Positions 2,500 to 17,553 of a stretch of DNA of 46,907 nucleotides are shown piece after piece (position 1 is the first letter of the stretch; each line of letters starts with the position of its first letter). The position numbers and the translations under genes are program-made. The notes beneath the pieces are model-generated. The model had not been told where the DNA came from, searched no databases, and saw only the letters and a program-made list of their open reading frames with translations. This stretch comes from a virus (lineage: Duplodnaviria > Heunggongvirae > Uroviricota > Caudoviricetes): IMG/VR virus record IMGVR_UViG_2651869724_000014; one strand, 5' to 3'.

Positions 2500-2870
2500 T
2501 TTTTGACCTGCCCTTCAAGCATTATGGGGTAAATCTTCACCCCCAGACGTCCACCAGATACTGGCTGACCACGAACGATATTGATTTCATCAAACTGCTC
2601 ATCGTCCATTAACACTCCCGCATGCGTCAGCGCATCCAGCGGTGCTTTCAGGATATTGTCCAGGTCGCGACGACGCTTATCCGGTGGCTCTGCAATCACC
2701 TTTATCGCCAGCCTTCCGGACAGGATTAATTTCAGCCGCTGCTGGCGAACAATAAGCGCCACAGCCCGGCGATAACGCTTTCCCTCCTCCGAGATAAAAT
2801 ATGTGCTGCCACGACGTCGCCAGTAGGTGTTCACCGTTGGCGGGTAAGGTAAAACCAAATCTATGAGCAT
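2496..2870 (-). CDS. rusA: Holliday junction resolvase RusA
   Basis: 124 aa; LPYPPTVNTYWRRRG and DKRRRDLDNILKAPLDALTHAGVLMDDEQF match the RusA family; 4-bp overlap with Q. Confidence 0.8.
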   Translation of the reverse strand: MLIDLVLPYPPTVNTYWRRRGSTYFISEEGKRYRRAVALIVRQQRLKLILSGRLAIKVIAEPPDKRRRDLDNILKAPLDALTHAGVLMDDEQFDEINIVRGQPVSGGRLGVKIYPIMLEGQVKK

Positions 2871-2882
2871 CAGTCACCTCTT

Positions 2883-3932
2883 TTACCCAAGCACGCCAGT
2901 TGCAAAGGCGTGATCAAGAAAACGAAAAATTAAATCAACCTGAGAGCCATGCTTTTCTTCGAACGCCAGCGGATCCGCATGAAGCTCGTTGTGATGCTCC
3001 CGACACAGCGGTAGCGTGAAAATATCGTGAGATTTTGTCCCCATTCCGCCCTGACCATGACCAATCAGGTGATGGGGATCGTCGGCTGGCTTACCACAAC
3101 ACGCACACGGCTGAGTCTTCACCCAGCGTGTGTATTTCTCGTTAACCCAGCGGCGACGTTTAGGTCGTTTCATGAAAGATTCCGGAGGCTCAGGATCAAC
3201 GGCAATGCTGACCACCGTCTTTTCCTGTGGTGGGTTCTGTTGCTGGTGGGCGTGAGGCAGCGGCGCAAGATTTTTTGTGCGCTGCTTCAGTATGCTGGTG
3301 GCGGTCTGCTCTCCCGGTACGATGTCGCTTTCACGGTACATTGAGCGGATTTTTTCCGCACGCAACCCCAGCGAACGACGTAATACCGCTTCCGGTAGCG
3401 CGTCCGCCACCTGATTGCGGACCGCCCACCAGGATAATTCAGCCAGAGATAATTCACGCTCCTGCGTACCGCTTATTGCGTGACCGATGACGTCAATCAT
3501 CCATGCTGACAGGTTTTGATGAGCAAGTTGCTCGAGTGATTCGGATGTCTGGTCACGCAGCTGGTTGTCGCAGTGCCAGCACAACACCATTGCGCCGGTA
3601 CCATAACGGTGAATGACGGTTTCGCTGTGATGATAATCGCCGTGTGGCCACTGGCAGGATTTAATATGGCGCAACAGCCAGTCAGACAATGCACCAGCAC
3701 CACCAGCAGCACGAATCACCCGTGCGTTACTGAAAAACGGCAGCAATGTTTTGTCTTCCACCAGCGGCTGGCGAACGGCAGGAACGACCCCGGACGGCAG
3801 ATTACGCATGCTTTTCGGTTCCGGCTCCACCAATACCCGGGTATTGTGGAATACCGGCATGGATTCACGGCCCGGCTTAACGATCACCAGCCCGAGTTCC
3901 GGTACCAGAACAGGTCGAAGTAATACCCGCAC
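2883..3932 (-). CDS. YdfU-like prophage protein (DUF968-type, Cys/His-rich C-terminus)
   Basis: 349 aa, the same length as Qin YdfU; C-terminal CACCGKPADDPHHLIGHGQGGMGTKSHD...CREHHNELH. Confidence 0.5.
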   Translation of the reverse strand: MRVLLRPVLVPELGLVIVKPGRESMPVFHNTRVLVEPEPKSMRNLPSGVVPAVRQPLVEDKTLLPFFSNARVIRAAGGAGALSDWLLRHIKSCQWPHGDYHHSETVIHRYGTGAMVLCWHCDNQLRDQTSESLEQLAHQNLSAWMIDVIGHAISGTQERELSLAELSWWAVRNQVADALPEAVLRRSLGLRAEKIRSMYRESDIVPGEQTATSILKQRTKNLAPLPHAHQQQNPPQEKTVVSIAVDPEPPESFMKRPKRRRWVNEKYTRWVKTQPCACCGKPADDPHHLIGHGQGGMGTKSHDIFTLPLCREHHNELHADPLAFEEKHGSQVDLIFRFLDHAFATGVLG

Positions 3933-3933
3933 G

Positions 3934-4212
3934 TTACCTCCAGATGCGTTGCTGGAATGTGCGGGACGGACGCGGTGGGCGTTCAGAGTAAGGAAGCCTG
4001 ACGGAGATTATCCAGTGACGATAATCGAGGCTGAGGGCTTTCTTAATCTCGTATCCGTGTCTGCGGTAGCACTGAATTAGCCACTCGGCCTGTTCTTCAG
4101 TGCATGGGTCATGCTGGAACCAGTCAGATTTGAAAGTGCGGGAACGCCGCCCGTGCCTGCTGGCAAAGACGGCAAAATCATCAGAATTGTGTAATTTGGT
4201 ATCGTGCGCCAT
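3934..4212 (-). CDS. Hypothetical prophage protein (nin-region)
   Basis: ORF packed against ydfU-like gene; internal Met at 4210-4212 chosen as start; no recognisable motif. Confidence 0.3.
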   Translation of the reverse strand: MAHDTKLHNSDDFAVFASRHGRRSRTFKSDWFQHDPCTEEQAEWLIQCYRRHGYEIKKALSLDYRHWIISVRLPYSERPPRPSRTFQQRIWR

Positions 4213-4283
4213 CGGTTGTCTCTGCTGGCGCAGCAGGTGCCAGTTGTTCAGGCTGGCGTGCGAATTGTAAACCAGAATGCCAG

Positions 4284-4310
4284 GAAAAAACAAAACCCGC
4301 CGAAGCGGGT
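4284..4310 (-). terminator. Intrinsic terminator-like hairpin
   Basis: acccgc-cgaa-gcgggt stem with an A-run on the plus strand (T-run on minus). Confidence 0.35.
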
Positions 4311-4508
4311 ATGCTAAAACAAACTGAAAGTAATATACCGGACTTGTAAAGGAACGATAGAAGAATTATTGGATTAAACCCTGACTCAATCCAGATTTCA
4401 TAGGCAACAACTACGGACTAATCATCACAGTCATGTTTGATAGGCTTAGTCCACATTGGGTGAGGGTTTACGGCGTTTTCACTAATAATTTATCGTCCAA
4501 GCTATACA

Positions 4509-4901
4509 CTACTGCCCTGTTTTAACGAAGTTTTTAAAGGAAACAACTGCCTGATAGGGGTTTGGTTGACAGCCAAACATATTATCGCAAAAAGGCTTGA
4601 TGAAAATTCTTGAGGATCCATCTTCATTTGGCATTTTACTCACTTGATAAGCGAGGAATGGACTATTTGGAGAGGGATTATAAGTGGAAATTAGCGTGTC
4701 TGTCGCCGTTTGAATTTTCCATGAGGAATTATTAGCCAACCAGAATTGCGCTCGTTTCCAATAAAAGTCACATTGCTTTTCATCATTACATGTTAGTGGC
4801 TTCATTGCTTCTGCTTTCAACGCTGGATCGACCTTTGCTGCACACCCTCCCAACATTACTGTTGCAATCATTACACCTGCGACTAAAACAAGTTTCTTCA
4901 T
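4509..4901 (-). CDS. Putative lipoprotein (prophage moron)
   Basis: N-terminus MKKLVLVAGVMIATVMLGGC is a lipobox signal peptide; lower GC than flanking phage genes. Confidence 0.5.
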   Translation of the reverse strand: MKKLVLVAGVMIATVMLGGCAAKVDPALKAEAMKPLTCNDEKQCDFYWKRAQFWLANNSSWKIQTATDTLISTYNPSPNSPFLAYQVSKMPNEDGSSRIFIKPFCDNMFGCQPNPYQAVVSFKNFVKTGQ

Positions 4902-5044
4902 CTCCCTGCCCCATCAATAAAAGTTCGGTTCTCTAATAACTAGAGTTAATCAACGGAAAAAACGCCGAAGCGGGTTAAGTGCGGGTGCGTTGAGGATGCC
5001 TGACACATCAGAGGTGGCGAGGGATTTCTCCCCCGCCAGGTCTC

Positions 5045-5200
5045 TTACTCCTCAGGTTCGTAAGCTGTGAAGACAGCGACCTCCGTCTGGCCGGTTCGGA
5101 TTCGTACCTCGCAGAGGTCTTTCCTCGTTACCAGTGCCGTCACAATGACGGTTAAACAGATGACGATCAGGGCGATTAACATCGCCTTTTGCTGCTTCAT
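5045..5200 (-). CDS. hokD: Hok/Gef family type I toxin HokD (RelF)
   Basis: 51-aa translation MKQQKAMLIALIVICLTVIVTALVTRKDLCEVRIRTGQTEVAVFTAYEPEE matches HokD as recalled; ATG at 5198-5200. Confidence 0.8.
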   Translation of the reverse strand: MKQQKAMLIALIVICLTVIVTALVTRKDLCEVRIRTGQTEVAVFTAYEPEE

Positions 5201-5994
5201 AGCCTGCTTCTCCTTGCCTTTCGGCACGTAAGAGGCTAACCTAGATTTGCCGTTCATAGATTGAGCCTCAGATTAATGTTAAGCGTCTTGCAGGACGCGT
5301 AATGTTAACTGGGGCTTTTCTCTATCTGCCTTTGGTGTTCATGCCTGAGACAGATAGCCTCAAGCACCCGCAGCCATTCTACTTAACTCCCGTTACCTCG
5401 CCAATATGAAATCAGTCAGAAAGGCGATCCATAAGAACAACAGCAAGGCAATAAATTGCCATTAAGGCAGCAATAGCCAGCGCACATTTGAGAACCAGCA
5501 CCACAACCTCCTGTATTGGACGTACATCAGTCCTGATAAATATGAGGCTGTCTCGTCAGTGATTCAATACAACTATTGGGTATAGTTTCTGTGATTTTGT
5601 TCTGTAGAAATGGAACACAATAACCAGTCACCACCAGCACTTCTTTAAATACGCCAAGTCCGACGCAAGCTAACCTTCTAGCCCACTTTGAGCGAGAAGC
5701 AGACATTTACTTAACTGGATAGCAAGAGACTTCATATATCATGGTTGATCCCGGAGTTTTCAATAATGGAAAGACATTGCCCGTATGATCGGGCCGTAAC
5801 CACATTAGAAGCAGGTGCCCTTTGTGAATTTTGATTGTGTCAACCTATCTGTTTTGAATTTTTTATAAAAAATATTCGCAAATTTGTGAATTATGAGAGA
5901 CAAACGAGCATGGACAACCAATGTTACTTTCATACACAATGAAGCAACATGATAAAAGTACACTGACTTTAGCAAGTAAATTTAGGAGATTGCG

Positions 5995-7329
5995 ATGTTT
6001 AGCTTAATCATGGCCGGAGAACCGGACGTTTTTGACCGCTGGCCGTGTATGGACCCAGGGCTTACAGAAGGCGAGGAAAGATTCTCGATGTCCCGCATGC
6101 TGGAAGGCACCCCAAGCGATATTTACAGTAAATTAACACCAATAAGACCCGATACCTTAAGAGAACTCGCCAAGCTACCAGTATTGTTCATGACCGAAAC
6201 TTATACAAAAGATGATGAATATGATACAAACAAGTACATCAGGATCAGACTTGGGGAAATAAGAAATTTACGTAAAGATGGTGGCGATATTTTATTTTCT
6301 TTCAAGATTAATCATAATTTTGGAGAAATAACGAATCCCCAAACGACATTATATAAAGAAACCCTAGGGCTAGGATCTTTCGGGTTAAGCCGTACACATT
6401 GGGCAGTAAAAAATAAGGATTTAAATATTGTTCTGGAATCACTTGGTTTAAACAAACAAAATAGTCACCTCAAAGGTACAATCAAATTAAAAAAACAAAC
6501 ATACCCAGTAGTCGAGAATATTATAGATTATCTTAATTTCATAAAGAAAAACTTTCGTGATGGTCTCATTACCTTTTATCGTGGACACTCTAAAAGCTCA
6601 TATGAGCTTGTCCCCTCTCTTTACAGAAAAAATCAAAACGGGACGTACAGGCATCTTGCTTCAGAATCTGATTTAGTACGTGAAATACTCAGCGCAAGAC
6701 CAAATGAATTTAAGGAGGATAAATTTACGATTGATAAACTTGTCCGCATGCAGCATTATGGCTTGCCTACAAGACTCTTAGACATTACATCTAACCCACT
6801 GATAGCATTATATTTTGCTTGCTGTTCGAACCCCAATGAAAACGGACAGGTGATTTCGTTTTCAACAAATAGAAAGAAAATTAAATATTTCGACTCAGAT
6901 ACAGTGAGCTGTATAGCAAACTTATCACTTTTATCTTACGAAGAGTTGGAAAAATTGTCCTCCTCTGATTCCAGAAAAGGTAATATGGAGTTATCTGAAC
7001 TCACTGATAAACTTGCAGACCTTATACAGAATGAAAAATCATATTTTAGAAACAGAATAATTCCTGATGACTTAAGGAAAGTTGTTTTCCTTAAGGCTAA
7101 AATAAATAATGAACGCATACAATCTCAGGCAGGAGCTTTTCTTCTGTTCGGACTTGATCCCATTTTACCGGAAACAGATGCTGAGTTTCCTCTTAACAGA
7201 GTGGAGATAGCGAACAAAAATAAAATTCTGGAAGAGCTGGCGCAGCTTAATATATCCGAAAGCACTGTATATCCCAGCATGGAGAAAACGGCAGCAGAAA
7301 TTAAAAAAAAGTTTTTATCGGTATCATAA
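5995..7329 (+). CDS. FRG-domain protein, candidate prophage-encoded defence/abortive-infection moron
   Basis: 444 aa with FYRGHSKSSYELVPSLYR and MQHYGLPTRLLDITSNPLIALYFAC, the FRG-domain core; opposite strand to surrounding phage genes and AT-rich. Confidence 0.55.
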   Translation: MFSLIMAGEPDVFDRWPCMDPGLTEGEERFSMSRMLEGTPSDIYSKLTPIRPDTLRELAKLPVLFMTETYTKDDEYDTNKYIRIRLGEIRNLRKDGGDILFSFKINHNFGEITNPQTTLYKETLGLGSFGLSRTHWAVKNKDLNIVLESLGLNKQNSHLKGTIKLKKQTYPVVENIIDYLNFIKKNFRDGLITFYRGHSKSSYELVPSLYRKNQNGTYRHLASESDLVREILSARPNEFKEDKFTIDKLVRMQHYGLPTRLLDITSNPLIALYFACCSNPNENGQVISFSTNRKKIKYFDSDTVSCIANLSLLSYEELEKLSSSDSRKGNMELSELTDKLADLIQNEKSYFRNRIIPDDLRKVVFLKAKINNERIQSQAGAFLLFGLDPILPETDAEFPLNRVEIANKNKILEELAQLNISESTVYPSMEKTAAEIKKKFLSVS

Positions 7330-7567
7330 AGGGATAAACTAAAGGCAACGAAAACTAAGACTGCGCAGTCTTCAGATGGAAGTGCTCATTGGGAACGGTT
7401 TCAGGGGCAAAAACTGGAAGTTCCAGTGGGCCTTGAGCTGCTCCCTATAAATTAACATATCTCAATGTTATCAATGTCTGCTTTTGGCACAAAGCGGACA
7501 ACCACGCTAGCTCTACCCTGTGCCACAAAATGTCAATTTACATCTGAACTAATGCACTTTAATCTCG

Positions 7568-7990
7568 TCACTTCAAAAAATACCGAACATCCCCCTGATA
7601 AAACGACAATATCCGCTGCATAACTTCGCTTTTACGACACTCAGTACAAATTATATTATGACGCCTGTCGTAACGACGTATTTCTCCATCAGGTAATGAC
7701 CAGATAAGGTCCGGATCAACCGCAGATGGTTTCTTCAGCTTTGCCCTTGAGAGCTTTTTACGGGCATTTTGCCAGTCCTTACGCGCCTGTTCAGACGGGA
7801 ATAACCCGTAACCAGAGTTGTATACATCGCCGCTGGCAACCAGCTCTCTTGCGAGAACGCTCATCAGATATCTTGTCGCACCTGTCTTGACTTCCAGTTG
7901 CCGTAACGTCTCACGCCCACTCTGGCGTACGAGTTCAACAACCTGCCCTTTAATTTTTTCTCGCTCTTCTTGTGTAAAAACTTTTGCCAC
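7568..7990 (-). CDS. Hypothetical prophage protein (replication region)
   Basis: 140-aa ORF directly downstream of O-like gene; no recognisable motif. Confidence 0.35.
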   Translation of the reverse strand: MAKVFTQEEREKIKGQVVELVRQSGRETLRQLEVKTGATRYLMSVLARELVASGDVYNSGYGLFPSEQARKDWQNARKKLSRAKLKKPSAVDPDLIWSLPDGEIRRYDRRHNIICTECRKSEVMQRILSFYQGDVRYFLK

Positions 7991-8030
7991 AAGTCCTCCT
8001 GAAAATTACCTCATGACCAGAAATCAACAC

Positions 8031-9107
8031 TTACCCCCTGAAGCCCGGTGGAATTTCGGTATCTGGTTCAGAAATGTGATTCACGCAACGCTGGTTATTC
8101 GTACCGCTTACCGGGAGCAACCAGGGGTTTTCAAAATTCCGGTCCGGTCCAAAAAACGTCGTCGCTCGCTGAACAAATTCCGTTCCCGCTTTCCCGGTAG
8201 CCGCCAGATATCTTGCGTAACGCCTCACGCCATCCAGCATGGCCTCTGGTGGCACCCCCTCGCGTAATCTGGCCTTCCAGGCACTGAAAGCGGATTTCTT
8301 CGGGTTTGCCCCAGCACGCAACGGGTACTCCCGCCAGACCTGTTCGAACACATCCGGATAATCCACTCGTCCCACAGACTGCCCGGTGTTTTCCGGAACT
8401 ACCCGATCGGCTTCCCGCTGAATGGCGGAATCGGCTTCAGGCTGCTGCAGTTGGTGTGATTGCTCCGGCCTTGCGGTCATCACCTGCTGCACAGCGCCCG
8501 AATCGGCTTTCAGCGCATACGCTGAATCGGCTTCCGGTGTCGTGCCTGCTGGCTGACCAGGATTGACGGCCTGAACATCCCCTGCCTGGTTCGTGGCGTT
8601 TTTTACGCCATGGACCATAGTATTTTGATCTTCTTGATCTGTATCTTTATCTGTATCTTTATCTGTCGTGACTCGTCGTGACATGTGCGTGACATTTCGT
8701 GACGCGCCGTGACAATCGCCATTTTGTTCCCGCTTTCTTTCCCTCTCTCGCTGCGCCCTCTTGCGCTCTGCAGGAGATTTTGCGGTTTGCGATATATTGC
8801 CGTTGTCCTCTTTAAGCACTTGGCGTTTTTCCCATCCAGTGATTAAATCACCATCAAGTACCCGCCCCTGCATCGTCTGCAAAATTGAATCAATTACCTC
8901 TTCTGTTACGTCGAGCGCACTTGCCAAATCTTCTGTCGTGACATCAATGTGACCTCGCGTGACATTTCGTGACGCGCTCACCAGGAGGTGGATATACACT
9001 GCCATCACTGTTGCAATTGGCTGCCCTGACACCCTGGCAATTGTTCGCCACTTAGGGTCATTTGGCATGTCATGCCATAATCTGAGCCAGGCGTTAGCCA
9101 TACTCAC
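8031..9107 (-). CDS. Phage replication initiator / replisome organiser (O-like)
   Basis: N-terminus MANAWLRLWHDMPNDPKWRTIARVSG...VYIHLLVSASRN resembles the replisome-organiser N-domain; follows cro/cII-like genes; contains internal iteron arrays. Confidence 0.5.
   Translation of the reverse strand: MSMANAWLRLWHDMPNDPKWRTIARVSGQPIATVMAVYIHLLVSASRNVTRGHIDVTTEDLASALDVTEEVIDSILQTMQGRVLDGDLITGWEKRQVLKEDNGNISQTAKSPAERKRAQRERERKREQNGDCHGASRNVTHMSRRVTTDKDTDKDTDQEDQNTMVHGVKNATNQAGDVQAVNPGQPAGTTPEADSAYALKADSGAVQQVMTARPEQSHQLQQPEADSAIQREADRVVPENTGQSVGRVDYPDVFEQVWREYPLRAGANPKKSAFSAWKARLREGVPPEAMLDGVRRYARYLAATGKAGTEFVQRATTFFGPDRNFENPWLLPVSGTNNQRCVNHISEPDTEIPPGFRG
8625..8975. repeat. Candidate prophage origin: helically phased CGTGAC iterons inside the O-like gene
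   Basis: CGTGAC at 8667, 8677, 8688, 8698, 8708 (10-11 bp spacing), a tandem repeat atctgtatcttt x2 at 8641-8666, and a second CGTGAC cluster at 8937-8972. Confidence 0.4.
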
Positions 9108-9172
9108 CTCTTCTGATACCGAATCTTTTTACTCACGAGTTGCCGGAAGCGATTCGATATGGCTATTGTCAG

Positions 9173-9598
9173 TCAATGTACTGCCACAGCATTTCCTGCC
9201 GGGCCACCACGGTTCATCTGATTGAAACCGGCGATTGCCACTGCGACAAAATCATCAGCGTCTCTCACCAATCGCTCCCGCGTCTCCACCAGCTCCCGAA
9301 AATAAGCTGAACTGTGGCTGCGCATTCTGGCCACCAGCAAAGGTGGCATTGCCTTTTCGATCGCTGGTAACAACGCCTGAATTTTTTCAACTGCATCAGG
9401 GGTGTCTTTCTCTACCCAGCGGAAAATTTTCTGGGTATTGCGAGCCAAGGCTTCCGGATGGCTGTCGTCATACAGTTCAGGAAACGTCATACCCAACTCA
9501 AAATAAGCCTGGGTTATTCCAGCTGCTGGAACTTTTTCGCCATCAGGACGCGCCCAGGCATTCATCGCCATGCGGATGTGTTCATGCTTGATTTTCAT
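9173..9598 (-). CDS. cII/YdaT-like early regulatory protein
   Basis: 141-aa ORF directly downstream of and overlapping the cro-like gene; size matches Rac YdaT; assignment by position. Confidence 0.3.
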   Translation of the reverse strand: MKIKHEHIRMAMNAWARPDGEKVPAAGITQAYFELGMTFPELYDDSHPEALARNTQKIFRWVEKDTPDAVEKIQALLPAIEKAMPPLLVARMRSHSSAYFRELVETRERLVRDADDFVAVAIAGFNQMNRGGPAGNAVAVH

Positions 9599-9825
9599 GA
9601 ATCCTCCCCTTGGTTAGAAGGCGGATTATGATCAGAACCGGGAATGACAACCGTCGGTATGTGTAACTCATATTTGAGCGCCCCGGCAGTGACTGCCTGA
9701 ATTAGCAACGCCCATTTCCACGGAACCTCTTCCCCCCACATGCTGACTGTGGTTTTTGACGTTCCTAGAGCTGCGGCTGTTTTAACAACTCCGCCAAAAT
9801 AGCCTAATACTTCTGATTTTTTCAT
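9595..9825 (-). CDS. Cro/DicC-like HTH regulator
   Basis: 76 aa from ATG at 9823-9825 with GGAG RBS; MKKSEVLGYFGGVVKTAAALGTSKTTVSMW is HTH-like; divergent from the cI-like gene. Confidence 0.5.
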   Translation of the reverse strand: MKKSEVLGYFGGVVKTAAALGTSKTTVSMWGEEVPWKWALLIQAVTAGALKYELHIPTVVIPGSDHNPPSNQGEDS

Positions 9826-9916
9826 GAGTCGCTCCATAAAACTGAACGCCAAAAGTTTAATAATCAAAACCAAAGAAAGTCAAGAAACAAAACCATCTGT
9901 GTTTTAAAATCAAAAC
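9826..9916. promoter_or_regulatory. Divergent immunity-region promoter/operator interval
   Basis: AT-rich 91-bp spacer between divergent cro-like and cI-like genes; operators not resolved. Confidence 0.35.
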
Positions 9917-10555
9917 ATGAGCAAGCAAACAATATCTGAACGCATAACCCAACGTATGCATGCGCTAAACCTGAAAGGCAAAGACCTTGTCAATGCCACT
10001 GGCGCATCAAAAGGCTCCGTAAGTCAATGGATGAACGGTGGAGGAGCGCCGTCCTCGCGTTACATAAGTTCACTGGCAAAGATATTGAAAGTAAACGAAA
10101 ATTGGCTTCTTAATGGAGGAGAGTTAAATACAGGTGATTCGCTTGATCTATCTTTACCGCCGATAAAAACGGTTCCGCTACTATCACTTCAGCAGGCAGC
10201 AAGCTGGAGTGATTATATGAAAAATTCCTCAATAACCTCTTGTGTGCAGCTTGTCGGAGAAATCCCGGCCAATACCTTTGCAGTTGTTCTAGAGAGTGAC
10301 AGTATGTCAACATCTGGTGGGGGAGTTTCCATCCCAAATGGTTCAACAGTTTTTGTTGATCCCGATCGAACCGTACAACCAGGAAATATTGTCCTTGCCT
10401 TACCCAAAGGGACCACAACACCTGTCATTCGTAAACTGGAGATAGAAGGGCCGGATATTCTTTTAGTCCCCACGAATCCTCGCTACCCTTCAATTATGCT
10501 GGATGATCTATCTTGCATATTGGGCGTATGCTTTAAAATTCAACAAGATATTTAA
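9917..10555 (+). CDS. cI-type prophage repressor (HTH + LexA-like S24 peptidase domain)
   Basis: N-terminal HTH (LNLKGKDLVNATGASKGSVSQWMNG) and C-terminal S24-like segment (VVLESDSMSTSGG...IRKLEIEG). Confidence 0.75.
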   Translation: MSKQTISERITQRMHALNLKGKDLVNATGASKGSVSQWMNGGGAPSSRYISSLAKILKVNENWLLNGGELNTGDSLDLSLPPIKTVPLLSLQQAASWSDYMKNSSITSCVQLVGEIPANTFAVVLESDSMSTSGGGVSIPNGSTVFVDPDRTVQPGNIVLALPKGTTTPVIRKLEIEGPDILLVPTNPRYPSIMLDDLSCILGVCFKIQQDI

Positions 10556-10852
10556 CCAACCTCATCTATTTGATTAACTGTATGCCATCGTGGCGATGGC
10601 TTAACAGCTGCCTGCTTAAAATGTTTTGATAAAAAAACATTGACCTAAAAAGTTCATTTTTCTAAACTTCATTCATTCCCTCACCCCACCCCACCCCACA
10701 GAATGCAGGGCAATACTTCGAGTTACCAGGCAGTGGTCAGGGGTTAAGTAGCCAGCCCGAGGCGTAAGAACATGACGGCAGGGTTCAACTTTAATAACTA
10801 TGCAGCAGGTTTTTGTTCCGCTACCCCGGCGTTAAGGGGAAATGAGGTCAAC

Positions 10853-11008
10853 ATGGATACTATCGATCTTGGCAACAACGAATCTCTGGTGTACGGCGTG
10901 TTTCCCAACCAGGACGGCACATTCACCGCGATGACGTATACCAAAAGCAAAACGTTTAAAACCGAAAATGGTGCCCGTCGCTGGCTGGAAAGAAACTCAG
11001 GTGAGTGA
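10853..11008 (+). CDS. ydfA: YdfA-like small prophage protein
   Basis: 51 aa from ATG 10853 with GAGG RBS; first gene of a ydfA-ydfB-ydfC-dicF-dicB-ydfD arrangement like Qin. Confidence 0.6.
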   Translation: MDTIDLGNNESLVYGVFPNQDGTFTAMTYTKSKTFKTENGARRWLERNSGE

Positions 11009-11009
11009 T

Positions 11010-11138
11010 ATGGATTTCGACACAATCATGGAAAAGACTTACGAAGAATACTTCGAAGGCCTTGCCGAAGGCGAAGAAGCTCTCAGCTTCAGTGAGTTTA
11101 AACAGGCGCTTTCCAGCTCGGCAAAATCTAACGGCTGA
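11010..11138 (+). CDS. ydfB: YdfB-like small prophage protein (42 aa)
   Basis: MDFDTIMEKTYEEYFEGLAEGEEALSFSEFKQALSSSAKSNG; below the 60-aa ORF-track cutoff, translated by hand; position between ydfA and ydfC. Confidence 0.55.
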   Translation: MDFDTIMEKTYEEYFEGLAEGEEALSFSEFKQALSSSAKSNG

Positions 11139-11167
11139 TAAGCGAAGCAGCACCGCGAGGAATCAGT

Positions 11168-11386
11168 ATGCAGAAACGAGAACCCGTCATCATCGCGCCA
11201 GACTATACCGATGATGAACTTTATGAGTGGATGCGCCAGAAAATTAATGCAGCGCAGGATCTGAAATGGGCCAATGAAGCCAGGGCTAAGCAGGCTGAAA
11301 ATCTGTCCGCTCTGGAGCAGGATATCACCAATCTGGAAAAAGCAGCGGCATTAAGCATTGCCAGAATGATTACATACCCGCGTTAA
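11168..11386 (+). CDS. ydfC: YdfC-like prophage protein
   Basis: 72 aa, same length and position as Qin YdfC. Confidence 0.6.
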   Translation: MQKREPVIIAPDYTDDELYEWMRQKINAAQDLKWANEARAKQAENLSALEQDITNLEKAAALSIARMITYPR

Positions 11387-11726
11387 TAGCTAACCAACGA
11401 AGCTAAGGTTGGTAATTAAGGAGTTCTCCACGGGTGAGGTGGAGTGCGTGCGCCGGACACGGGTGAGCATCCGGCACTGACAGTTTACTGAAAGGATATT
11501 TCCATGAAAAGTCAGACCATAACGCGAAAGCGCACGGCGAGGTAGCTGGTTCATAGATAGCCTGTCGTTAAATTTTCGTCGACCGTGCGCTTCCGGTTGT
11601 GGCACTCCGCGAAATGGCGCGGCGGTAAGTATGGCGGGGTTATTCCTTCCCCGTTGAGGACACCGGGTTGTCAGGTTGACCATACGCTTAAGTGACAACT
11701 CCGCTGCAACGCCCTCTGTTATCAAT

Positions 11727-11784
11727 TTTCTGGTGACGTTTGGCGGTATCAGTTTTACTCCGTGACTGCTCTGCCGCCCTTTTT
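11727..11784 (+). ncRNA. dicF: DicF small RNA (ftsZ-targeting sRNA of Qin-type prophages)
   Basis: tttctggtgacgtttggcggtatcagttttactccgtgactgctctgccgcccttttt matches DicF as recalled, with terminal hairpin and T-run, between ydfC and dicB. Confidence 0.7.
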
Positions 11785-11953
11785 AAAGTGAATTTTGTGA
11801 TGCGGTGAATGCGGCTAAGCGCACGCGGAACAGTTAAAACCAAAAACAGTGTTATGGGTGGATTCTCTGTATCCGGCGTTAATTGTTAACTGGTTAACGT
11901 CACCTGGAGGCACCAGGCACCGCATCACAAAACTCATTGTTGAGGGCGCGAAA

Positions 11954-12142
11954 ATGAAAACGTTATTACCAAACGTTAATACGTCTGAAGGTTGTTTTGA
12001 AATTGGTGTCACTATCAGTAATCCTGTATTTACTGAAGATGCCATTAACAAAAGAAAACACGAACGGGAGTTATTAAATAAAGTATGCATTGTTTCAATG
12101 CTGGCCCGTTTACGTCTGATGCCAAAAGGATGTGCACAATGA
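11954..12142 (+). CDS. dicB: Cell-division inhibitor DicB
   Basis: 62-aa translation MKTLLPNVNTSEGCFEIGVTISNPVFTEDAINKRKHERELLNKVCIVSMLARLRLMPKGCAQ. Confidence 0.85.
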   Translation: MKTLLPNVNTSEGCFEIGVTISNPVFTEDAINKRKHERELLNKVCIVSMLARLRLMPKGCAQ

Positions 12143-12330
12143 ATCCAGTATTTGCACTTATTCTGACGGTTTTTCTTGTTTCCGGAGAGCCAGTTGATAT
12201 TGCAGTCAGTGTTCACAGAACAATGCAGGAATGTATGGCAGCAGCAACCGAACAGAAAATTCCAGGCAACTGTTATCCGGTCGATAAAGTTATTCACCAG
12301 GATAATAACGAAATCCCGGCAGGATTTTAA
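12139..12330 (+). CDS. ydfD: YdfD-like lysis-associated small protein
   Basis: 63 aa starting MNPVFALILTVFLVSGEPVD; ATG overlaps the dicB stop (caATGA). Confidence 0.65.
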   Translation: MNPVFALILTVFLVSGEPVDIAVSVHRTMQECMAAATEQKIPGNCYPVDKVIHQDNNEIPAGF

Positions 12331-12423
12331 AACAGCACCGTAATAAATATCCAGTTTCATTCTTATATGTCAGCAATGGCAGAGATTTGTTCACACTTAA
12401 ATCTGTGATGAGGTTTACCAATA

Positions 12424-14865
12424 ATGAGCACTGATAAAGAAGAATTTGCACTATATTGCGAAGCAAAAAATGACAAAGTAAGAAAACGCCTAGGAATTAA
12501 AGGTGGTTTTTACTGGACTACAGCAAAAAAATTATCTGTTGCAATCTCCCGCTGCATTACCGCAATGGATGACAACGATTATGATGAAGACGACTTTAAA
12601 AAACCCGTCCGCGTCAATTTGCCCGTTGTTGACGACCTTCCGCCAGAAGGCGTGTTTGATACTGAATTCTGCAACCGCTATGAAAAAGGCGGGAAAGATG
12701 GCATCACAATGACATTTATCGGCCCTTCCCCCTCTGTTCAGGACAAACCAGCCAGCACTGACAATACCAACATCAACGGCGAAGACATGACTGAGATTGA
12801 GGAGAGCATGCTTCTGCCTGTCTCCGGTCAGGAACTGCCCATTCGTTGGCTTGCTCAACACGGCAGCGAAAAACCAGTAACGCACGTTTCACGCGACGAA
12901 CTCCAGGCATTACACATTGCACGGGCTGAAGAACTACCGGCTGTTACTGCCCTGGCTATTTCGCATAAAACCAGTCTGCTCGACTCGCTGGAGATTCGCG
13001 ACCTCCACAAACTGGTTCGTGACACTGACAAAGTTTTCCCTAATCCTGGTAATTCAGACCTGGGACTAATAACTGCTTTTTTCGAAGCATACCTGGACGC
13101 TGACTACACTGATCGGGGTCTGCTGACAAAAGAGTGGATGAAAGGAAATCGTGTTTCACGCATCACCCGCACGGCTTCCGGTGCTAATGCTGGCGGTGGG
13201 AACAAAACCGATCGCAATCCGAATTTAGTACACACCCTCGACACACTGGATGTGGAGATTGCAGCAGCCACACTTCCGATGGATTTTAATATTTATGAAA
13301 TTCCGGGCAGCGTTTATCGTCGCGCAAAAGAAGTAGTCCTGAACAAAGAAAGTCCGTTCAAAGAATGGTCCGCAGCACTTCGTGCAACCCCGGGTATTCT
13401 GGACTATTCCCGCGCCGCTATTTTTGCACTTATCCGAAGCGCACACCCTGAATTTTATCACTACCCGGGACGCCTTCAGGGGTATATCAACGCCTATTTG
13501 ACGGAAACTGATCACGAGAACCCCAGCAAGGAAACTCTCACAGCTGCCCGGCATACGCCGGAAAAAGATATCCTGGAAAAAATTAACCGCGAGGTGGTTA
13601 CTGAGCGTGAAACAGAAGAAGAAAAACCACAACCATCTGACGCAATGGCAGGTGAACAGGCAACAACTGAAACAATGGAACCGGATACAACTGAACATGG
13701 CCAGAACGCGCAGTCGCTGGATGCTCAGTCGCAGGTGAGTTCCGCTAACCAAGTAAAAGTCACCGCTGACGAAGTAAACAAAATTATGCAGGCAGCCAAT
13801 ATCAGCCAGCCTGACGCCGATAAGTTACTTGCTGTATCGCGTGGTGAATTTGTTGAGGGGATTAGCGACCCTAATGATCCGAAATGGGTCAAGGGGATCC
13901 AGACTCGCGATTCTGTGAACCAGAACCAGCATGAATCGGAACGGAACGACCAAAAAGCGGAACAAAACAGCCCAAATGCGTTACAAAACGAGCCAGAAAC
14001 GAAACAATCCGAACCAGTAGCGCAACAGGAACCGGAAAAAGTCTGCACCGCCTGCGGTCAGAGCGGTGGCGGCAACTGCCCTGATTGTGGCGCGGTGATG
14101 GGCGACGCAACATACCAGGAAACATTCGATGAAGAGAATCAGGTTGAAGTTCAGGAAAATGATCCGGAGGAAATGGAAGGCGCTGAACATCCACACAAGG
14201 AGAACCCTGGCGGCAATCAGCATCACGCCAGCGATAATAAAACTGGCGAGGCGACAGATCCCTTAATTAAGGTGAATGGTCATCATAAGCTCACATCCAC
14301 CAGCAGAGCGGGGATTCATCTGATGATCGACCTTGAAACCATGGGAAAAAATCCCGATGCCCCGATTATCTCAATAGGCGCAATATTTTTCGATCCACAA
14401 ACCGGAGATATGGGACCGGAATTTAGCAAGACCATCGATCTGGATACTGCTGGCGGAGTCATTGATCGTGACGTCATTAAATGGTGGCTGAAGCAATCAC
14501 GTGAAGCGCAGTCTGCCATTATGACCGATGAAATCCCGTTAGATGATGCACTACTGCAATTGCGGGAATTTATCGACGAAAACTCCGGTGAATTTTTTGT
14601 TCAGGTCTGGGGTAATGGGGCCAACTTCGACAACGTGATTTTACGCCGTTCATACGAACGACAGGGTATCCCCTGCCCATGGCGCTACTGCAACGATCGC
14701 GATGTACGCACAATCGTTGAGCTGGGGAAAGCCATAGACTTCGATGCCAGAACTGCTATCCCATTCGAAGGTGAGCGCCATAATGCACTTGATGACGCTC
14801 GTTACCAGGCAAAATACGTTTCAGCTATCTGGCAAAAACTGATCCCGAGTCAGGCTGATTTTTAA
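12424..14865 (+). CDS. Full-length YdfE-family protein with zinc ribbon and C-terminal DnaQ-like DEDDh 3'-5' exonuclease domain
   Basis: 813 aa; CTACGQSGGGNCPDCG zinc ribbon; exonuclease motifs IDLETMG, WGNGANFDNVIL and HNALDDARYQAKYV. Confidence 0.6.
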   Translation: MSTDKEEFALYCEAKNDKVRKRLGIKGGFYWTTAKKLSVAISRCITAMDDNDYDEDDFKKPVRVNLPVVDDLPPEGVFDTEFCNRYEKGGKDGITMTFIGPSPSVQDKPASTDNTNINGEDMTEIEESMLLPVSGQELPIRWLAQHGSEKPVTHVSRDELQALHIARAEELPAVTALAISHKTSLLDSLEIRDLHKLVRDTDKVFPNPGNSDLGLITAFFEAYLDADYTDRGLLTKEWMKGNRVSRITRTASGANAGGGNKTDRNPNLVHTLDTLDVEIAAATLPMDFNIYEIPGSVYRRAKEVVLNKESPFKEWSAALRATPGILDYSRAAIFALIRSAHPEFYHYPGRLQGYINAYLTETDHENPSKETLTAARHTPEKDILEKINREVVTERETEEEKPQPSDAMAGEQATTETMEPDTTEHGQNAQSLDAQSQVSSANQVKVTADEVNKIMQAANISQPDADKLLAVSRGEFVEGISDPNDPKWVKGIQTRDSVNQNQHESERNDQKAEQNSPNALQNEPETKQSEPVAQQEPEKVCTACGQSGGGNCPDCGAVMGDATYQETFDEENQVEVQENDPEEMEGAEHPHKENPGGNQHHASDNKTGEATDPLIKVNGHHKLTSTSRAGIHLMIDLETMGKNPDAPIISIGAIFFDPQTGDMGPEFSKTIDLDTAGGVIDRDVIKWWLKQSREAQSAIMTDEIPLDDALLQLREFIDENSGEFFVQVWGNGANFDNVILRRSYERQGIPCPWRYCNDRDVRTIVELGKAIDFDARTAIPFEGERHNALDDARYQAKYVSAIWQKLIPSQADF

Positions 14866-14923
14866 TGTTCAACCCTAATTGCCGCTAACCGTATATAGTT
14901 AGCGGCGGTTATGAGATATAGCT

Positions 14924-15127
14924 ATGAGCAGCTTATTTTTAACCGAAGATGAATTGCTAATATTAACGGGCTGCAAATATGCAAGCCACCAGCGAAAATG
15001 GTTAATGGAAAACGGGCTTCCGTTCTATACCAATCGTAGTGGCAAACCGATTGTCAGCCGGGATCTATTTACCTGCAATAAAACTTTACCACCACGCGAG
15101 GTAGAGCCGAATTTTGGTGCGATCTGA
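14924..15127 (+). CDS. Excisionase-like protein (DUF4224-type)
   Basis: 67 aa, LFLTEDELLILTGCKYASHQRKWLMENGLPF, immediately upstream of int. Confidence 0.5.
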   Translation: MSSLFLTEDELLILTGCKYASHQRKWLMENGLPFYTNRSGKPIVSRDLFTCNKTLPPREVEPNFGAI

Positions 15128-16209
15128 TGGGAAGACGAAGGAAAAATCCTGAACACGAAAAATTACCTCCAAATGTATACCCAAATAAATATAGTTATGT
15201 ATGGAAACCAACATCCAGAGAATCTGTCACACTAACCGCCATCAAGGATGGTTTAGCTGCTTTATGGAAAAAGTATGAGGAAACTGTAAATAATCGCGAT
15301 CGTGCAATGACATTCGGTCGCTTGTGGGAAAAATTCCTCGCCAGCGCCTATTACAGTGACCTTAGTCCAAGAACACAAAAAGATTATCTGCAACATCAAA
15401 AAAAGTTGCTTGCCGTATTCGGTAAGGTACCAGCGGATTCCATAAAACCAGAACACATCCGTCGATACATGGACAAAAGAGGGGAGCAGAGTAAAACGCA
15501 AGCCAACCATGAAAAAAGCAGTATGTCCCGTGTTTACAGTTGGGGGTATGAGCGAGGGTACGTCAAGGCTAACCCATGTGCAGGTGTAAGTAAATTCAAG
15601 GCCAAAAACCGCGAACGATATGTAACCGACAAAGAATACCAGGCAGTATTAAGCGTTGCACCTCTTCCTGTTTTTATCGCAATGGAAATTGCCTATCTGT
15701 GTGCAGCGAGGGTTTCCGATGTGTTATCGCTGAAATGGGAACAGATTGGAAACGACGGGATATTCATCCAGCAAGGGAAAACCGGAAAAAAACAGATAAA
15801 AGCATGGAGTCCACGATTACAGGCAGCGATCGAAAAAGCAAAACAGTTACCAAAATCTGCCTATGTGATCAGCAATCAATACGGCAACCGATATATGTAC
15901 AAAGGCTTTAACGAAATGTGGGTAGAAGCAAGAAATCGTGCTGGAAAAATTTCAGGTATTTTAACCGACTTCACCTTTCATGATCTGAAGGCGAAAGGAA
16001 TTTCAGACTATGAAGGAAGCAGCCGGGATAAGCAACTTTTCTCTGGTCACAAAACCGAAGGGCAAGTGCTAATCTATGACAGGAAGGTTAAAGTTTCACC
16101 AACACTTGATGTCCCGTTACCTGAAAATATTCCAAGAAAATATTCCAAGAAAATATTCCAAGTAATTCCAAGTGTGATTTTTGTCACTGACTTAATGATG
16201 TGTAAGTGA
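15127..16209 (+). CDS. Lambdoid prophage tyrosine integrase
   Basis: 360 aa with tyrosine-recombinase catalytic region; ends 8 bp before the tRNA-Ser 3' end. Confidence 0.85.
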   Translation: MGRRRKNPEHEKLPPNVYPNKYSYVWKPTSRESVTLTAIKDGLAALWKKYEETVNNRDRAMTFGRLWEKFLASAYYSDLSPRTQKDYLQHQKKLLAVFGKVPADSIKPEHIRRYMDKRGEQSKTQANHEKSSMSRVYSWGYERGYVKANPCAGVSKFKAKNRERYVTDKEYQAVLSVAPLPVFIAMEIAYLCAARVSDVLSLKWEQIGNDGIFIQQGKTGKKQIKAWSPRLQAAIEKAKQLPKSAYVISNQYGNRYMYKGFNEMWVEARNRAGKISGILTDFTFHDLKAKGISDYEGSSRDKQLFSGHKTEGQVLIYDRKVKVSPTLDVPLPENIPRKYSKKIFQVIPSVIFVTDLMMCK

Positions 16210-16217
16210 TTGAATTT

Positions 16218-16307
16218 TGGCGGAGAGAGGGGGATTTGAACCCCCGGTGGAGTTGCCCCCACTCCGGTTTTCGAGACCGGTCCGTTCAGCCGCTCCGGCA
16301 TCTCTCC
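16218..16307 (-). tRNA. serU: tRNA-Ser (anticodon CGA)
   Basis: Minus-strand sequence GGAGAGATGCCGGAGCGG...CTCGAAAACC...GGTTCAAATCCCCCTCTCTCCGCCA: long variable arm, CGA anticodon loop, CCA end. Confidence 0.85.
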
Positions 16308-16400
16308 GTTCAGATGGTTGCCATGATGCCAGGAAATTTGGCATTTTAACAGTCCCTGTCCGTGCAATTTTGTTCAAGTGACGAGTTTGCGAGCAAAACG

Positions 16401-17198
16401 ATGATTAAGTGGCCCTGGAAAGTACAAGAATCAGCACATCAAACTGCCCTTCCCTGGCAGGAAGCACTATCGATCCCCCTTTTAACGTGTCTGACAGAAC
16501 AGGAACAAAGCAAATTAGTCGCTCTTGCCGAACGTTTTTTACAACAAAAACGGCTTGTTCCTTTACAGGGCTTTGAGCTGAATTCATTAAGAAGCTGCCG
16601 GATAGCACTTCTATTTTGCCTGCCCGTTCTGGAGTTAGGACTGGAATGGCTGGATGGTTTTCATGAAGTCTTAATTTATCCTGCGCCATTTGTGGTCGAT
16701 GATGAATGGGAAGACGATGTCGGTCTGGTGCATAACCAACGTATTGTTCAGTCAGGTCAGAGCTGGCAGCAAGGGCCTATCGTTTTGAACTGGTTGGATA
16801 TACAAGATTCTTTTGATGCTTCTGGTTTTAACCTGATTATTCATGAAGTCGCTCATAAGCTGGACACCCGTAACGGCGATCGCGCCAGCGGAGTTCCCTT
16901 TATTCCGTTGCGTGAGGTTGCTGGCTGGGAACACGATCTTCATGCTGCAATGAACAACATTCAGGAAGAAATCGAATTGGTTGGCGAGAATGCGGCGAGC
17001 ATTGATGCTTATGCTGCCAGTGATCCTGCTGAATGTTTTGCCGTACTTTCTGAATATTTCTTTAGCGCCCCAGAACTTTTTGCTCCTCGTTTCCCTTCAT
17101 TGTGGCAACGTTTCTGCCAATTTTATCAACAAGATCCTTTGCAGAGACTGCATCGCACTAATAATACAGACTCGTTTTCGGCGACGAATGTTCATTAA
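16401..17198 (+). CDS. mtfA: Mlc titration factor MtfA (YeeI)
   Basis: [28 protein letters not shown]... matches MtfA as recalled, including IHEVAHKLD zinc-peptidase-like motif; chromosomal GC content. Confidence 0.85.
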
Positions 17199-17298
17199 TT
17201 AACAACTTTGCAGATTAATTAACCAATTGAAATGGCTTATGAAATTTAGTGTTGACAGACAAGGTACCGCTAAGTAATATGCGCCCCGTTCACACGAT

Positions 17299-17374
17299 TC
17301 CTCTGTAGTTCAGTCGGTAGAACGGCGGACTGTTAATCCGTATGTCACTGGTTCGAGTCCAGTCAGAGGAGCCA
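17299..17374 (+). tRNA. asnT: tRNA-Asn (anticodon GTT)
   Basis: TCCTCTGTAGTTCAGTCGGTAGAACGGCGGACTGTTAATCCG...GGTTCGAGTCCAGTCAGAGGAGCCA, 76 nt. Confidence 0.85.
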
Positions 17375-17375
17375 A
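17352..17375. repeat. Island attL: direct repeat formed by tRNA-Asn 3' end
   Basis: gttcgagtccagtcagaggagccaa recurs at 45796-45820. Confidence 0.6.
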
Positions 17376-17553
17376 TTTAAAGAAAGCAGACGTTCACTGA
17401 CGTCTGTTTTCTGCATTTATATCAACTGGTTATCCCCTTCTTCAGGTTCACCCTCGTTCGTTAAAAACCGCTCGAATCCACACTACTTTGCTGGTAAAAA
17501 TGCTGGTAAAGCTGGTTCGATTTGCGTTTTACCAGCACGCGGAGGGAACCGTC

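Follow-up and report, generated by a model that had tools for sequence, protein, structure and literature searches.

A hairpin-bordered FRG-domain cassette shared by lambdoid and P2-like prophages, and its candidate role in anti-phage defense

What is the role of a single gene that lies against the direction of transcription in the early-right operon of a lambdoid prophage? We addressed this question for an FRG-family gene on the plus strand (positions 5995–7329) of a 46,907-nucleotide stretch of DNA from a virus of the Caudoviricetes (IMG/VR record IMGVR_UViG_2651869724_000014), here called the window. The gene codes for a protein of 444 amino acids and is the only gene of a mobile cassette of 1.87 kb (5686–7556), which also occurs in P2-like prophages. 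In the window, the cassette occupies a hairpin-bordered slot of a lambdoid prophage of the Qin/Tritos type, with a DUF977/Ren-like gene on one side and the hokD-nin-Q region on the other. We read it, with a probability of about 0.6, as a prophage-borne single-gene anti-phage defense moron that is expressed in the lysogen.

A single-gene cassette in two phage families

The FRG gene starts with an ATG, preceded at a distance of six bases by an AGGAG Shine-Dalgarno sequence (5984–5988). Residues 193–282 of its product match the Pfam family FRG (PF08867; E = 2.7e-22, 79.9 bits, compared with a gathering cut-off of 25 bits). The protein is matched by 14 PADLOC profiles of the candidate defense family PDC-S15 (E = 2.7e-99, residues 166–440) and by no other PADLOC family, and phrog_4962 spans its entire length. 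The G+C content is 0.32–0.37 over the gene and ∼0.45–0.6 in the flanks, and the neighboring genes are on the minus strand. Reading frame, Pfam match, strands and base composition thus bear out an earlier note on this DNA, which described a lone, AT-rich, plus-strand FRG gene amid minus-strand genes. We find every copy of the gene intact, and dN/dS is 0.25–0.29 when compared with 97%-identical copies, indicating from sequence comparison a functional gene under purifying selection.

A blastn comparison defines the cassette. Positions 5686–7556 of the window correspond to positions 8001–9879 of a P2-like prophage locus (L001) at 94.7% identity, and the cassette DNA is ∼95% identical in P2-like prophages (L001 and L002) that are otherwise unrelated to the window prophage. 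Among 5,426 complete Escherichia coli genomes, which form the sample for all genome counts given here, two carry the cassette alone, at ∼95% identity, in a P2-like prophage beside yegQ. There it is placed between the tail-sheath gene FI and the tail-fiber assembly gene G, antisense to its neighbors. Identity between the P2-borne copy and that of the LF82 lambdoid prophage (phage Tritos) reaches 97.9%, so the exchange between the two families is fairly recent.

The FRG gene is found anywhere in 41 of the 5,426 genomes. A copy with 94% identity lies at the margin of a decayed prophage in eleven further genomes and is the immediate neighbor of a Septu system (PtuA, E = 1e-170; PtuB, E = 2e-32). 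Phage P2_2H1 has a 46% paralog behind gpA at its right end, which is the gpA-gpQ hotspot described by Rousset et al.; the hotspot tables of these authors include FRG-containing arrangements. A 51% homolog is located among the tail genes of Klebsiella P2-like prophages. Other copies are in plain chromosomal settings. Across five contexts (lambdoid, P2 Z/fun, Septu island, Bradyrhizobium and Agrobacterium) the neighbors of the gene differ, as would be expected of a gene that acts alone. The Z/fun locus has been named as a defense locus of P2 (PMC13586616), and how elements exchange such cargo is unknown according to a 2026 study of P2/P4 hotspots. In the Klebsiella prophages (L012–L015, 6432–7829), a co-oriented gene of 439–465 codons with no Pfam or PADLOC match precedes the FRG homolog; it could be a partner or separate cargo.

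The FRG gene adjoins the replication module, and it could in principle serve a conserved lambdoid replication or recombination function, or be a decaying remnant. However, the entire arrangement is found at this site in only 28 of the 5,426 genomes (0.5%), although the hokD and DUF977 flanks are present in most of them, unrelated genes replace the FRG gene in sister prophages, and the gene itself is intact and under purifying selection. We regard this explanation as very improbable, and distribution and replacement within the slot exclude the conserved replication or recombination gene that the earlier note had set against its own proposal. That proposal, a later-acquired accessory gene, is demonstrated by the genome counts, the alternative cargoes and the presence of the same cassette in P2-like prophages. 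The comparison the note had called for, with related prophages that lack the gene, reveals near-identical prophages holding unrelated cargo in the slot. As in other morons, the gene is thus patchy in close relatives and deviates in base composition.

A hairpin-bordered slot with exchangeable cargo

Breakpoint comparison divides the cassette into a variable part (5705–7472) and two short constant ends (5686–5704 and 7473–7556), which the window prophage shares with P2-like prophages and with lambdoid prophages that hold other cargo. Each slot end carries one copy of a ∼24-nucleotide hairpin with the consensus GTCYGCTTT-N6-AAAGCGGAC. The right copy (7476–7499, GTCTGCTTT-TGGCAC-AAAGCGGAC) forms a stable 10-bp hairpin (−12.5 kcal/mol, z = −3.6). 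The left copy (5681–5704, GCCCACTTTGAGCGAGAAGCAGAC) is degenerate in the window and folds weakly (−3.8 / −7.2 kcal/mol), compared with a perfect stem of −13.5 kcal/mol in its P2-like counterpart. These are the only two matches to the motif in the 46.9-kb window, where 0.05 would be expected by chance.

The same element borders the lambdoid slot (between hokD and DUF977) and the P2-like slot (between G and FI). Copies lie in L001 (7996–8019 and 9797–9820), L017 (836–859) and L008 (5982–6005); reference P2 has one just 3′ of gene G, and Qin has one 5′ of relB. At least 120 IMG/VR contigs contain the right-hand motif in its exact form, adjoining DUF977 in 72 and P2 gene G in 29 of them, and the left-end hairpin is kept regardless of the type of cargo. 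Copies of the FRG gene in the Septu island, in Klebsiella and in P2_2H1 lack the hairpins; we thus conclude that the hairpins mark the two slots rather than the gene, and reject them as an integral part of it. The flanking hairpin of the earlier note is therefore present, though as a property of the slot and not as a classical terminator, since no T-run follows it on the 3′ side. A 40-nucleotide 'inverted repeat' (I1) that we considered as transposon-type terminal repeats is better described as two copies of the palindromic hairpin. A search of Rfam returned no family for the element. Two small open reading frames (5527–5706, minus strand, and 7465–7623, plus strand) open within the two hairpin elements and both begin 'MSA...'; we set them aside as probable by-products of the repeated element.

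The left border of the slot is a type I toxin-antitoxin locus, hokD/sok (hokD/mokD; 5045–5369, minus strand). HokD itself (5045–5257) matches Pfam HOK_GEF (E = 3e-23), and the sok antisense RNA (5195–5369; Rfam RF01794, 110 bits, E = 2e-25) completes the locus. The right border is the DUF977/Ren-like gene (7568–7990, minus strand; Pfam DUF977, E = 4e-29; phrog_142, 'Ren-like exclusion protein'), the last gene of the replication module. Between these two borders, other genes are found in lambdoid prophages whose flanks are near-identical: a 269-residue protein in UMNK88 and many pig isolates, PD-T7-1 in phage mEp460_ev081 (E = 4e-157), an acetyltransferase and a helix-turn-helix regulator in phage Evi, and relBE, ydfV and flxA in K-12 Qin. 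Further cargo includes AbiH (with a partner gene), PDC-S39 and the RelA/SpoT-like PDC-S33, and there are weak HEPN-like and GNAT-like matches.

We found 76 IMG/VR loci in which a partner hairpin is located 1.0–6.7 kb away. They contain at least 34 cargo arrangements and 54 protein clusters, about half of which have no annotation, and the DNA between the hairpins mostly has 33–39% G+C. Three cargo types occur in both the lambdoid and the P2-like backbone, namely the FRG gene, the 269-residue protein and a pair of membrane protein and BCCT transporter. In this census the FRG and 269-residue cargoes each kept a single orientation with respect to the hairpin, and the annotated cargo included no identified transposase. 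The cassette probably moves by recombination at the common hairpin-bearing ends, and the hairpins may act as boundary 'handles' for such cargo exchange and perhaps also as transcript insulators.

No truly empty slot was detected in the 5,426 genomes. The single near-empty slot, in E. coli A20 (L009, 1690–1930), fuses 86 bp of the left end with 155 bp of the right end of an AbiH-type cassette, and we reject it as an empty site in favor of an internal deletion. Cargo can thus be lost by deletion, though empty slots are almost never seen. The commonest alternative cargo (IMG/VR cluster c0; L006, 3781–4590, UMNK88) is the 269-residue protein, which is rich in cysteine and contains CxxC...HxxPxC motifs. 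It has no Pfam or PADLOC match and is labeled 'chaperonin' in some genomes; it is present in lambdoid and P2 backbones and is a defense candidate. A second variable slot lies between hokD and the DUF968 gene (window 4300–5045, compared with L003 5923–7679). In LF82/Tritos it contains an RmrT/RmrA-like pair (ImmA/IrrE-HTH; PADLOC, E = 5.5e-102) that is expressed in the lysogen, and in the window the pair is replaced by reading frames of 130 and 119 codons.

Predicted sensor and effector halves of the FRG protein

A two-domain form of ∼450 residues is conserved at 41–100% identity in Enterobacterales, Aeromonas, Rhizobiales and Sphingomonas, with invariant residues clustered in both halves. The C-terminal FRG half (residues 161–444; 6475–7326, plus strand) is the putative effector, and its motifs are FYRGH (194–198), LLDITSNP (261–268) and IQSQAGAF (375–382). 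In an AF2 model of the protein (predicted local distance difference test score, pLDDT, 83.9), this half matches toxins and enzymes of the ADP-ribosyltransferase (ART) fold. Invariant within it are F-Y-R-G-H (194–198), which resembles ART motif I, and I-T-S (264–266), which resembles the S-T-S motif. Aravind's group counts Frg among the ART superfamily and predicts it to be an antiviral effector, possibly a NADase (PMC9503650).

The N-terminal domain (residues 1–160; 5995–6474, plus strand) is an unnamed putative sensor with a predicted PUA-like β-barrel. It lies outside the PDC-S15 profiles, which span residues 166–440 only, has no family in Pfam and, like the whole protein, returned no match in sequence searches against the Protein Data Bank (PDB). 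The best matches of its structure model are PUA-like readers. A Foldseek search against the PDB returned nothing significant; the matches with the best probability were Lon N-domains and McrB-N, which we take to be PUA-like folds as well. We hold the ART-like and PUA-like fold assignments with moderate confidence. The conserved residues of the N-domain (R34, E37, T39, E68 and R133-T-H135-W136-x-x-K139) would fit a polar/aromatic pocket for a predicted modified base or nucleotide.

A profile of the N-domain retrieved 840 cluster representatives among 1.84 billion proteins. These proteins are ∼80 to 1,061 residues long, with the domain at times in mid-protein. Among 68 of the longer matches, the partner is FRG in 17, a CAP12/Pycsar-type TIR domain in 16, Abi_C in 6, TIR_2 in 5, TIR in 4 and a protein kinase in 4, with single cases of AbiJ_NTD3, KAP NTPase, Schlafen/AlbA_2, PNP phosphorylase, DncV-like nucleotidyltransferase, SEFIR, EAD2 and FGE-sulfatase. 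PADLOC labels the fusions as PDC-S15, PDC-S35, PDC-S66, 'Effector' models of CBASS (cyclic oligonucleotide-based antiphage signaling systems), PycTIR and ThsB-like TIR. The residues R, E, T, E and R-x-H-W are nearly invariant across the fusions. An apparent link to PD-T4-6 was rejected, as the profiles align to the kinase parts only (residues 223–482 and 342–603).

In two proteins from independent assemblies (P0178 and P0269, 84% identical), cyclase, N-domain and FRG half are joined in one chain, with a CD-NTase at residues 1–307 (E = 1e-112), the N-domain at 313–444 and FRG at 478–750. They look like a one-protein CBASS-type system. The fusion is encoded on metagenomic contigs with flanking transposase genes (L144, 6001–8283). 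A PNP-type CBASS effector domain is fused to the N-domain in one further protein. In such proteins the N-domain occupies the signal-binding place of CBASS and Pycsar effectors and FRG that of the killing domain, and by analogy we read the window protein as a putative sensor joined to a putative effector.

Could the FRG gene instead be a selfish stabilization or toxin module, which causes post-segregational killing or stress-induced growth arrest and has no anti-phage action? The slot and its border do hold true toxin-antitoxin loci, relBE in Qin and hokD/sok, and the ART-fold toxins RES/ParT/MbcT are among the structural neighbors of the FRG half. Yet there is no adjacent antitoxin gene in the four contexts examined, the cassette contains one gene only, and Rfam finds only the sok RNA of the neighboring hokD. 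The two-domain sensor-effector architecture would also be atypical of toxins from toxin-antitoxin systems, and the partners of the N-domain are immune effectors. We thus consider a toxin module unlikely.

Lysogen expression, prophage setting and candidate function

The LF82 prophage with the same arrangement corresponds to phage Tritos, which produces virions and has been plaque-purified (PMC9928086); the antisense insert of 1.9 kb in the early-right operon is thus no block to lytic growth. Expression was assessed from the published RNA-seq tables of that study (PMC9928086), which cover not the window strain but the 97%-identical Tritos ortholog (LF82_282 / TRITO_38). In lysogens its log2 FPKM (fragments per kilobase per million) is 4.7–9.3 overall: ∼5 in LB stationary phase, ∼7 in B1, ∼9.25 in B6 (B1 and B6 being, apparently, conditions in Dulbecco's modified Eagle medium, DMEM) and ∼6.8 in macrophages. 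Values for the neighboring genes (DUF977, replication and Cro) are 2.3–4.8, and those for CI 7.7–11.7 (PMC9928086). The ortholog is thus transcribed above the flanking lytic genes and independently of the lytic operon and, as expected of a moron, has its own transcription from a repressed prophage. The far most abundant prophage transcript in LF82 is that of the hokD ortholog, with a log2 FPKM of ∼15–17.

The 5′ non-coding region of the cassette (5705–5994, plus strand) contains a weak sigma-70-like site (5911–5940) ahead of the Shine-Dalgarno sequence, and three direct repeats (window 5822–5894, plus strand; starting at 5822, 5852 and 5884, with ∼31-nucleotide spacing; TTGTGAATTTT / TTTTGAATTTT / TTGTGAATTAT), which could be operator sites or phased A/T tracts. 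The 3′ non-coding region (7330–7472, plus strand) contains small hairpins, for example AGACTGCGCAGTCT at 7358–7372, and folds somewhat more stably than shuffled sequence (z = −2.85).

Right of the FRG gene, beyond the DUF977/Ren-like gene, follow a replisome organizer (8031–9107), YdaT (9173–9598) and a P22-type Cro (9595–9873), all on the minus strand, and beyond Cro a LexA-like CI repressor on the plus strand. To the left, two small reading frames of 130 codons (4509–4901, phrog_16082) and 119 codons (3934–4293) separate hokD from a DUF968/HNH gene (2883–3932, minus strand). Two minus-strand reading frames beyond it (2496–2870 and 1678–2499) probably encode RusA and antiterminator Q, judged by synteny with related prophages. 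The best E. coli matches to the window are limited to 2541–17378, the prophage arm, which ends near an integrase-sized reading frame (15127–16209), the counterpart of a tyrosine recombinase annotated in matching genomes; the remaining part of the first 25 kb of the window shows no collinearity with the E. coli matches. Entries with 100% identity to the FRG protein come from E. coli as well as from Escherichia albertii, so that E. albertii or an E. coli lineage not yet sampled may be the host.

In the mechanism that we propose, the FRG gene would have a promoter of its own, active in the lysogen and directed antisense to the early-right lytic operon. The PUA-like domain would probably bind a nucleotide-type infection cue, either a signaling nucleotide or a modified base, and the FRG/ART domain, once triggered, would probably consume NAD+ or ADP-ribosylate a target, so that infection is stopped. 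The lysogen, and hence the prophage, would in this way be shielded from superinfecting phages by abortive infection or by direct blocking. When its own prophage enters the lytic cycle, the early-right transcript would oppose FRG expression. The evidence consistent with this candidate role in exclusion or abortive infection is association and architecture: the PDC-S15 match, the known defense genes among the slot-mates, the Septu neighbor, the ART fold and the sensor-like N-domain, which TIR and Abi_C effectors also have. From these we infer the anti-phage phenotype; the ligand, the enzymatic activity and the mode of cassette movement are likewise put forward as proposals.

Several points weigh against a defense role and against parts of this mechanism. 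The slot also holds non-defense cargo, namely a BCCT-type transporter, an MFS protein and a LysR regulator. The third ART motif is Q-S-Q378 instead of E-x-E and is located in a loop with pLDDT <50, with no canonical catalytic glutamate evident, so the chemistry may not be canonical. We found no cyclase in the cassette or nearby in the lambdoid, P2-like (E. coli and Klebsiella), Septu-island, Bradyrhizobium and Agrobacterium contexts, and no separate cyclase beside the close alphaproteobacterial relatives of the gene or beside those of the cyclase fusion; any ligand would thus need another source, in the phage or at some other place in the cell. With no cyclase in these contexts, and one only in the rare P0178/P0269 fusion, we reject the label 'CBASS effector' for the window gene. 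In a consensus scan, the site at 5911–5940 is weak and not above chance, which leaves the promoter assignment inferential; counts of promoter and terminator sites do not exceed those in shuffled sequence, and there is no intrinsic-terminator-like site on the plus strand from the FRG stop (7329) to the cassette end. LF82_282 in LB stationary phase is below the 5-fold moron threshold of the RNA-seq study and not on its moron list (PMC9928086). Finally, the searchable literature contains no FRG or PDC-S15 protein with a published defense phenotype, and PDC-S15 is a candidate family only.

An alternative is that the gene serves the phage during infection, for example by counter-defense, by host takeover as an ART like T4 Alt/ModA/ModB, or by enzymatic action on the nucleotide signals of immunity. 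The ART fold of the FRG half and an N-domain that may bind nucleotide ligands would suit such roles, and phages do encode enzymes that process NAD+ and ADP-ribose (PMC9503650). However, in both phage families the gene runs antisense to the lytic operon, transcription of its ortholog occurs in the lysogen with the lytic genes silent, and copies are found beside Septu with only degraded prophage genes and in plain chromosomal settings. A further point against a phage-serving function is that PDC-S15 is said to have been derived by PADLOC from association with defense islands. A function of this type seems improbable to us.

It is also rather improbable that the FRG gene is a lysogenic-conversion gene which alters host physiology or virulence rather than phage resistance. 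The ∼16-fold rise of the LF82 ortholog from LB stationary phase (log2 ∼5) to B6 (log2 ∼9.25) and the capacity of the slot for transporters and regulators could be read in this way. Against it, the protein has no transmembrane or secretion-related Pfam match (signal peptides were not specifically searched), members of the family occur in soil and plant bacteria and in many non-pathogens, and domain partners and neighbors are of the immune type.

A defense moron in a prophage hotspot would have close precedents. In reference P2, fun(Z) occupies the same G-FI slot, in the same antisense orientation, with low G+C and as a single gene, and is annotated with 'blocks growth of T5; lysogenic conversion'. 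Judged by the annotations, the two are not related: the fun(Z) product has 528 residues and no FRG annotation. FRG has no known exclusion phenotype. P2 old/tin are carried in the gpA-gpQ hotspot, where the 46% paralog of P2_2H1 is located. PD-T7-1 and AbiH share with the FRG gene the hairpin-bordered hokD-DUF977 slot, mostly the same orientation, low G+C and single-gene cargo, but the proteins are unrelated to FRG. Both have reportedly shown anti-phage activity, in the work of Vassallo et al. in 2022 and in the lactococcal Abi literature.

The window protein further resembles TIR-STING/Cap12, PycTIR, ThsA, DSR2 and CBASS effectors in that a sensor and a predicted NAD+-directed effector are combined in one chain. 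Its effector has the ART/FRG fold instead of the TIR or SIR2 domain of known immune NADases, its N-domain is none of STING, SAVED, SLOG or a cNMP-binding domain, and it has no cyclase partner. DarT, RES/ParT/MbcT, Tpt1/KptA and diphtheria-type toxins resemble the FRG half at the level of the fold and in the aromatic-R-G and STS-like motifs, but there is no detectable sequence similarity, no E-x-E and no DarG- or Xre-type antitoxin. The best structural matches of the N-domain are the PUA-like (EVE/YTH/ASCH/SRA) modified-base readers of type IV restriction enzymes and other proteins (McrB-N, VcaM4I, SauUSI, PD-T4-3), which have an analogous reader-effector build.

The FRG family is already catalogued (Pfam FRG, PADLOC PDC-S15), and a prophage moron in a defense hotspot is of a familiar kind, as fun(Z), old/tin and PD-T7-1 illustrate. 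We found no description in the searchable literature of the PUA-like N-domain with many effector partners, of the cyclase-N-domain-FRG fusion, or of a common lambdoid/P2-like hairpin slot with shared cargo. A more far-reaching interpretation has two linked parts. In the first, the RTHW N-domain would be a new immune ligand sensor, for a nucleotide second messenger or a modified base, that gates FRG, TIR, Abi_C, kinase and PNP domains; FRG would be an ART-fold killing domain that consumes NAD+ or ADP-ribosylates, and the protein a new single-protein abortive-infection system. In the second, the hairpins would be recombination handles by which defense cassettes pass between unrelated phage families. 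This interpretation is tentative, and we consider it less likely than not.

If the FRG gene does defend against phages, it would be the first characterized FRG-domain immune effector and would bring an ART-fold enzyme into a picture now dominated by TIR and SIR2 NADases. The N-domain would then represent a new sensor module common to at least 840 protein clusters with many effectors. The cassette offers a concrete, testable case of defense-gene movement between unrelated temperate phages, and the slot between hokD and DUF977, with a hairpin at either end, represents a cheap bioinformatic beacon for new defense genes, because about half of its cargo clusters are unannotated.

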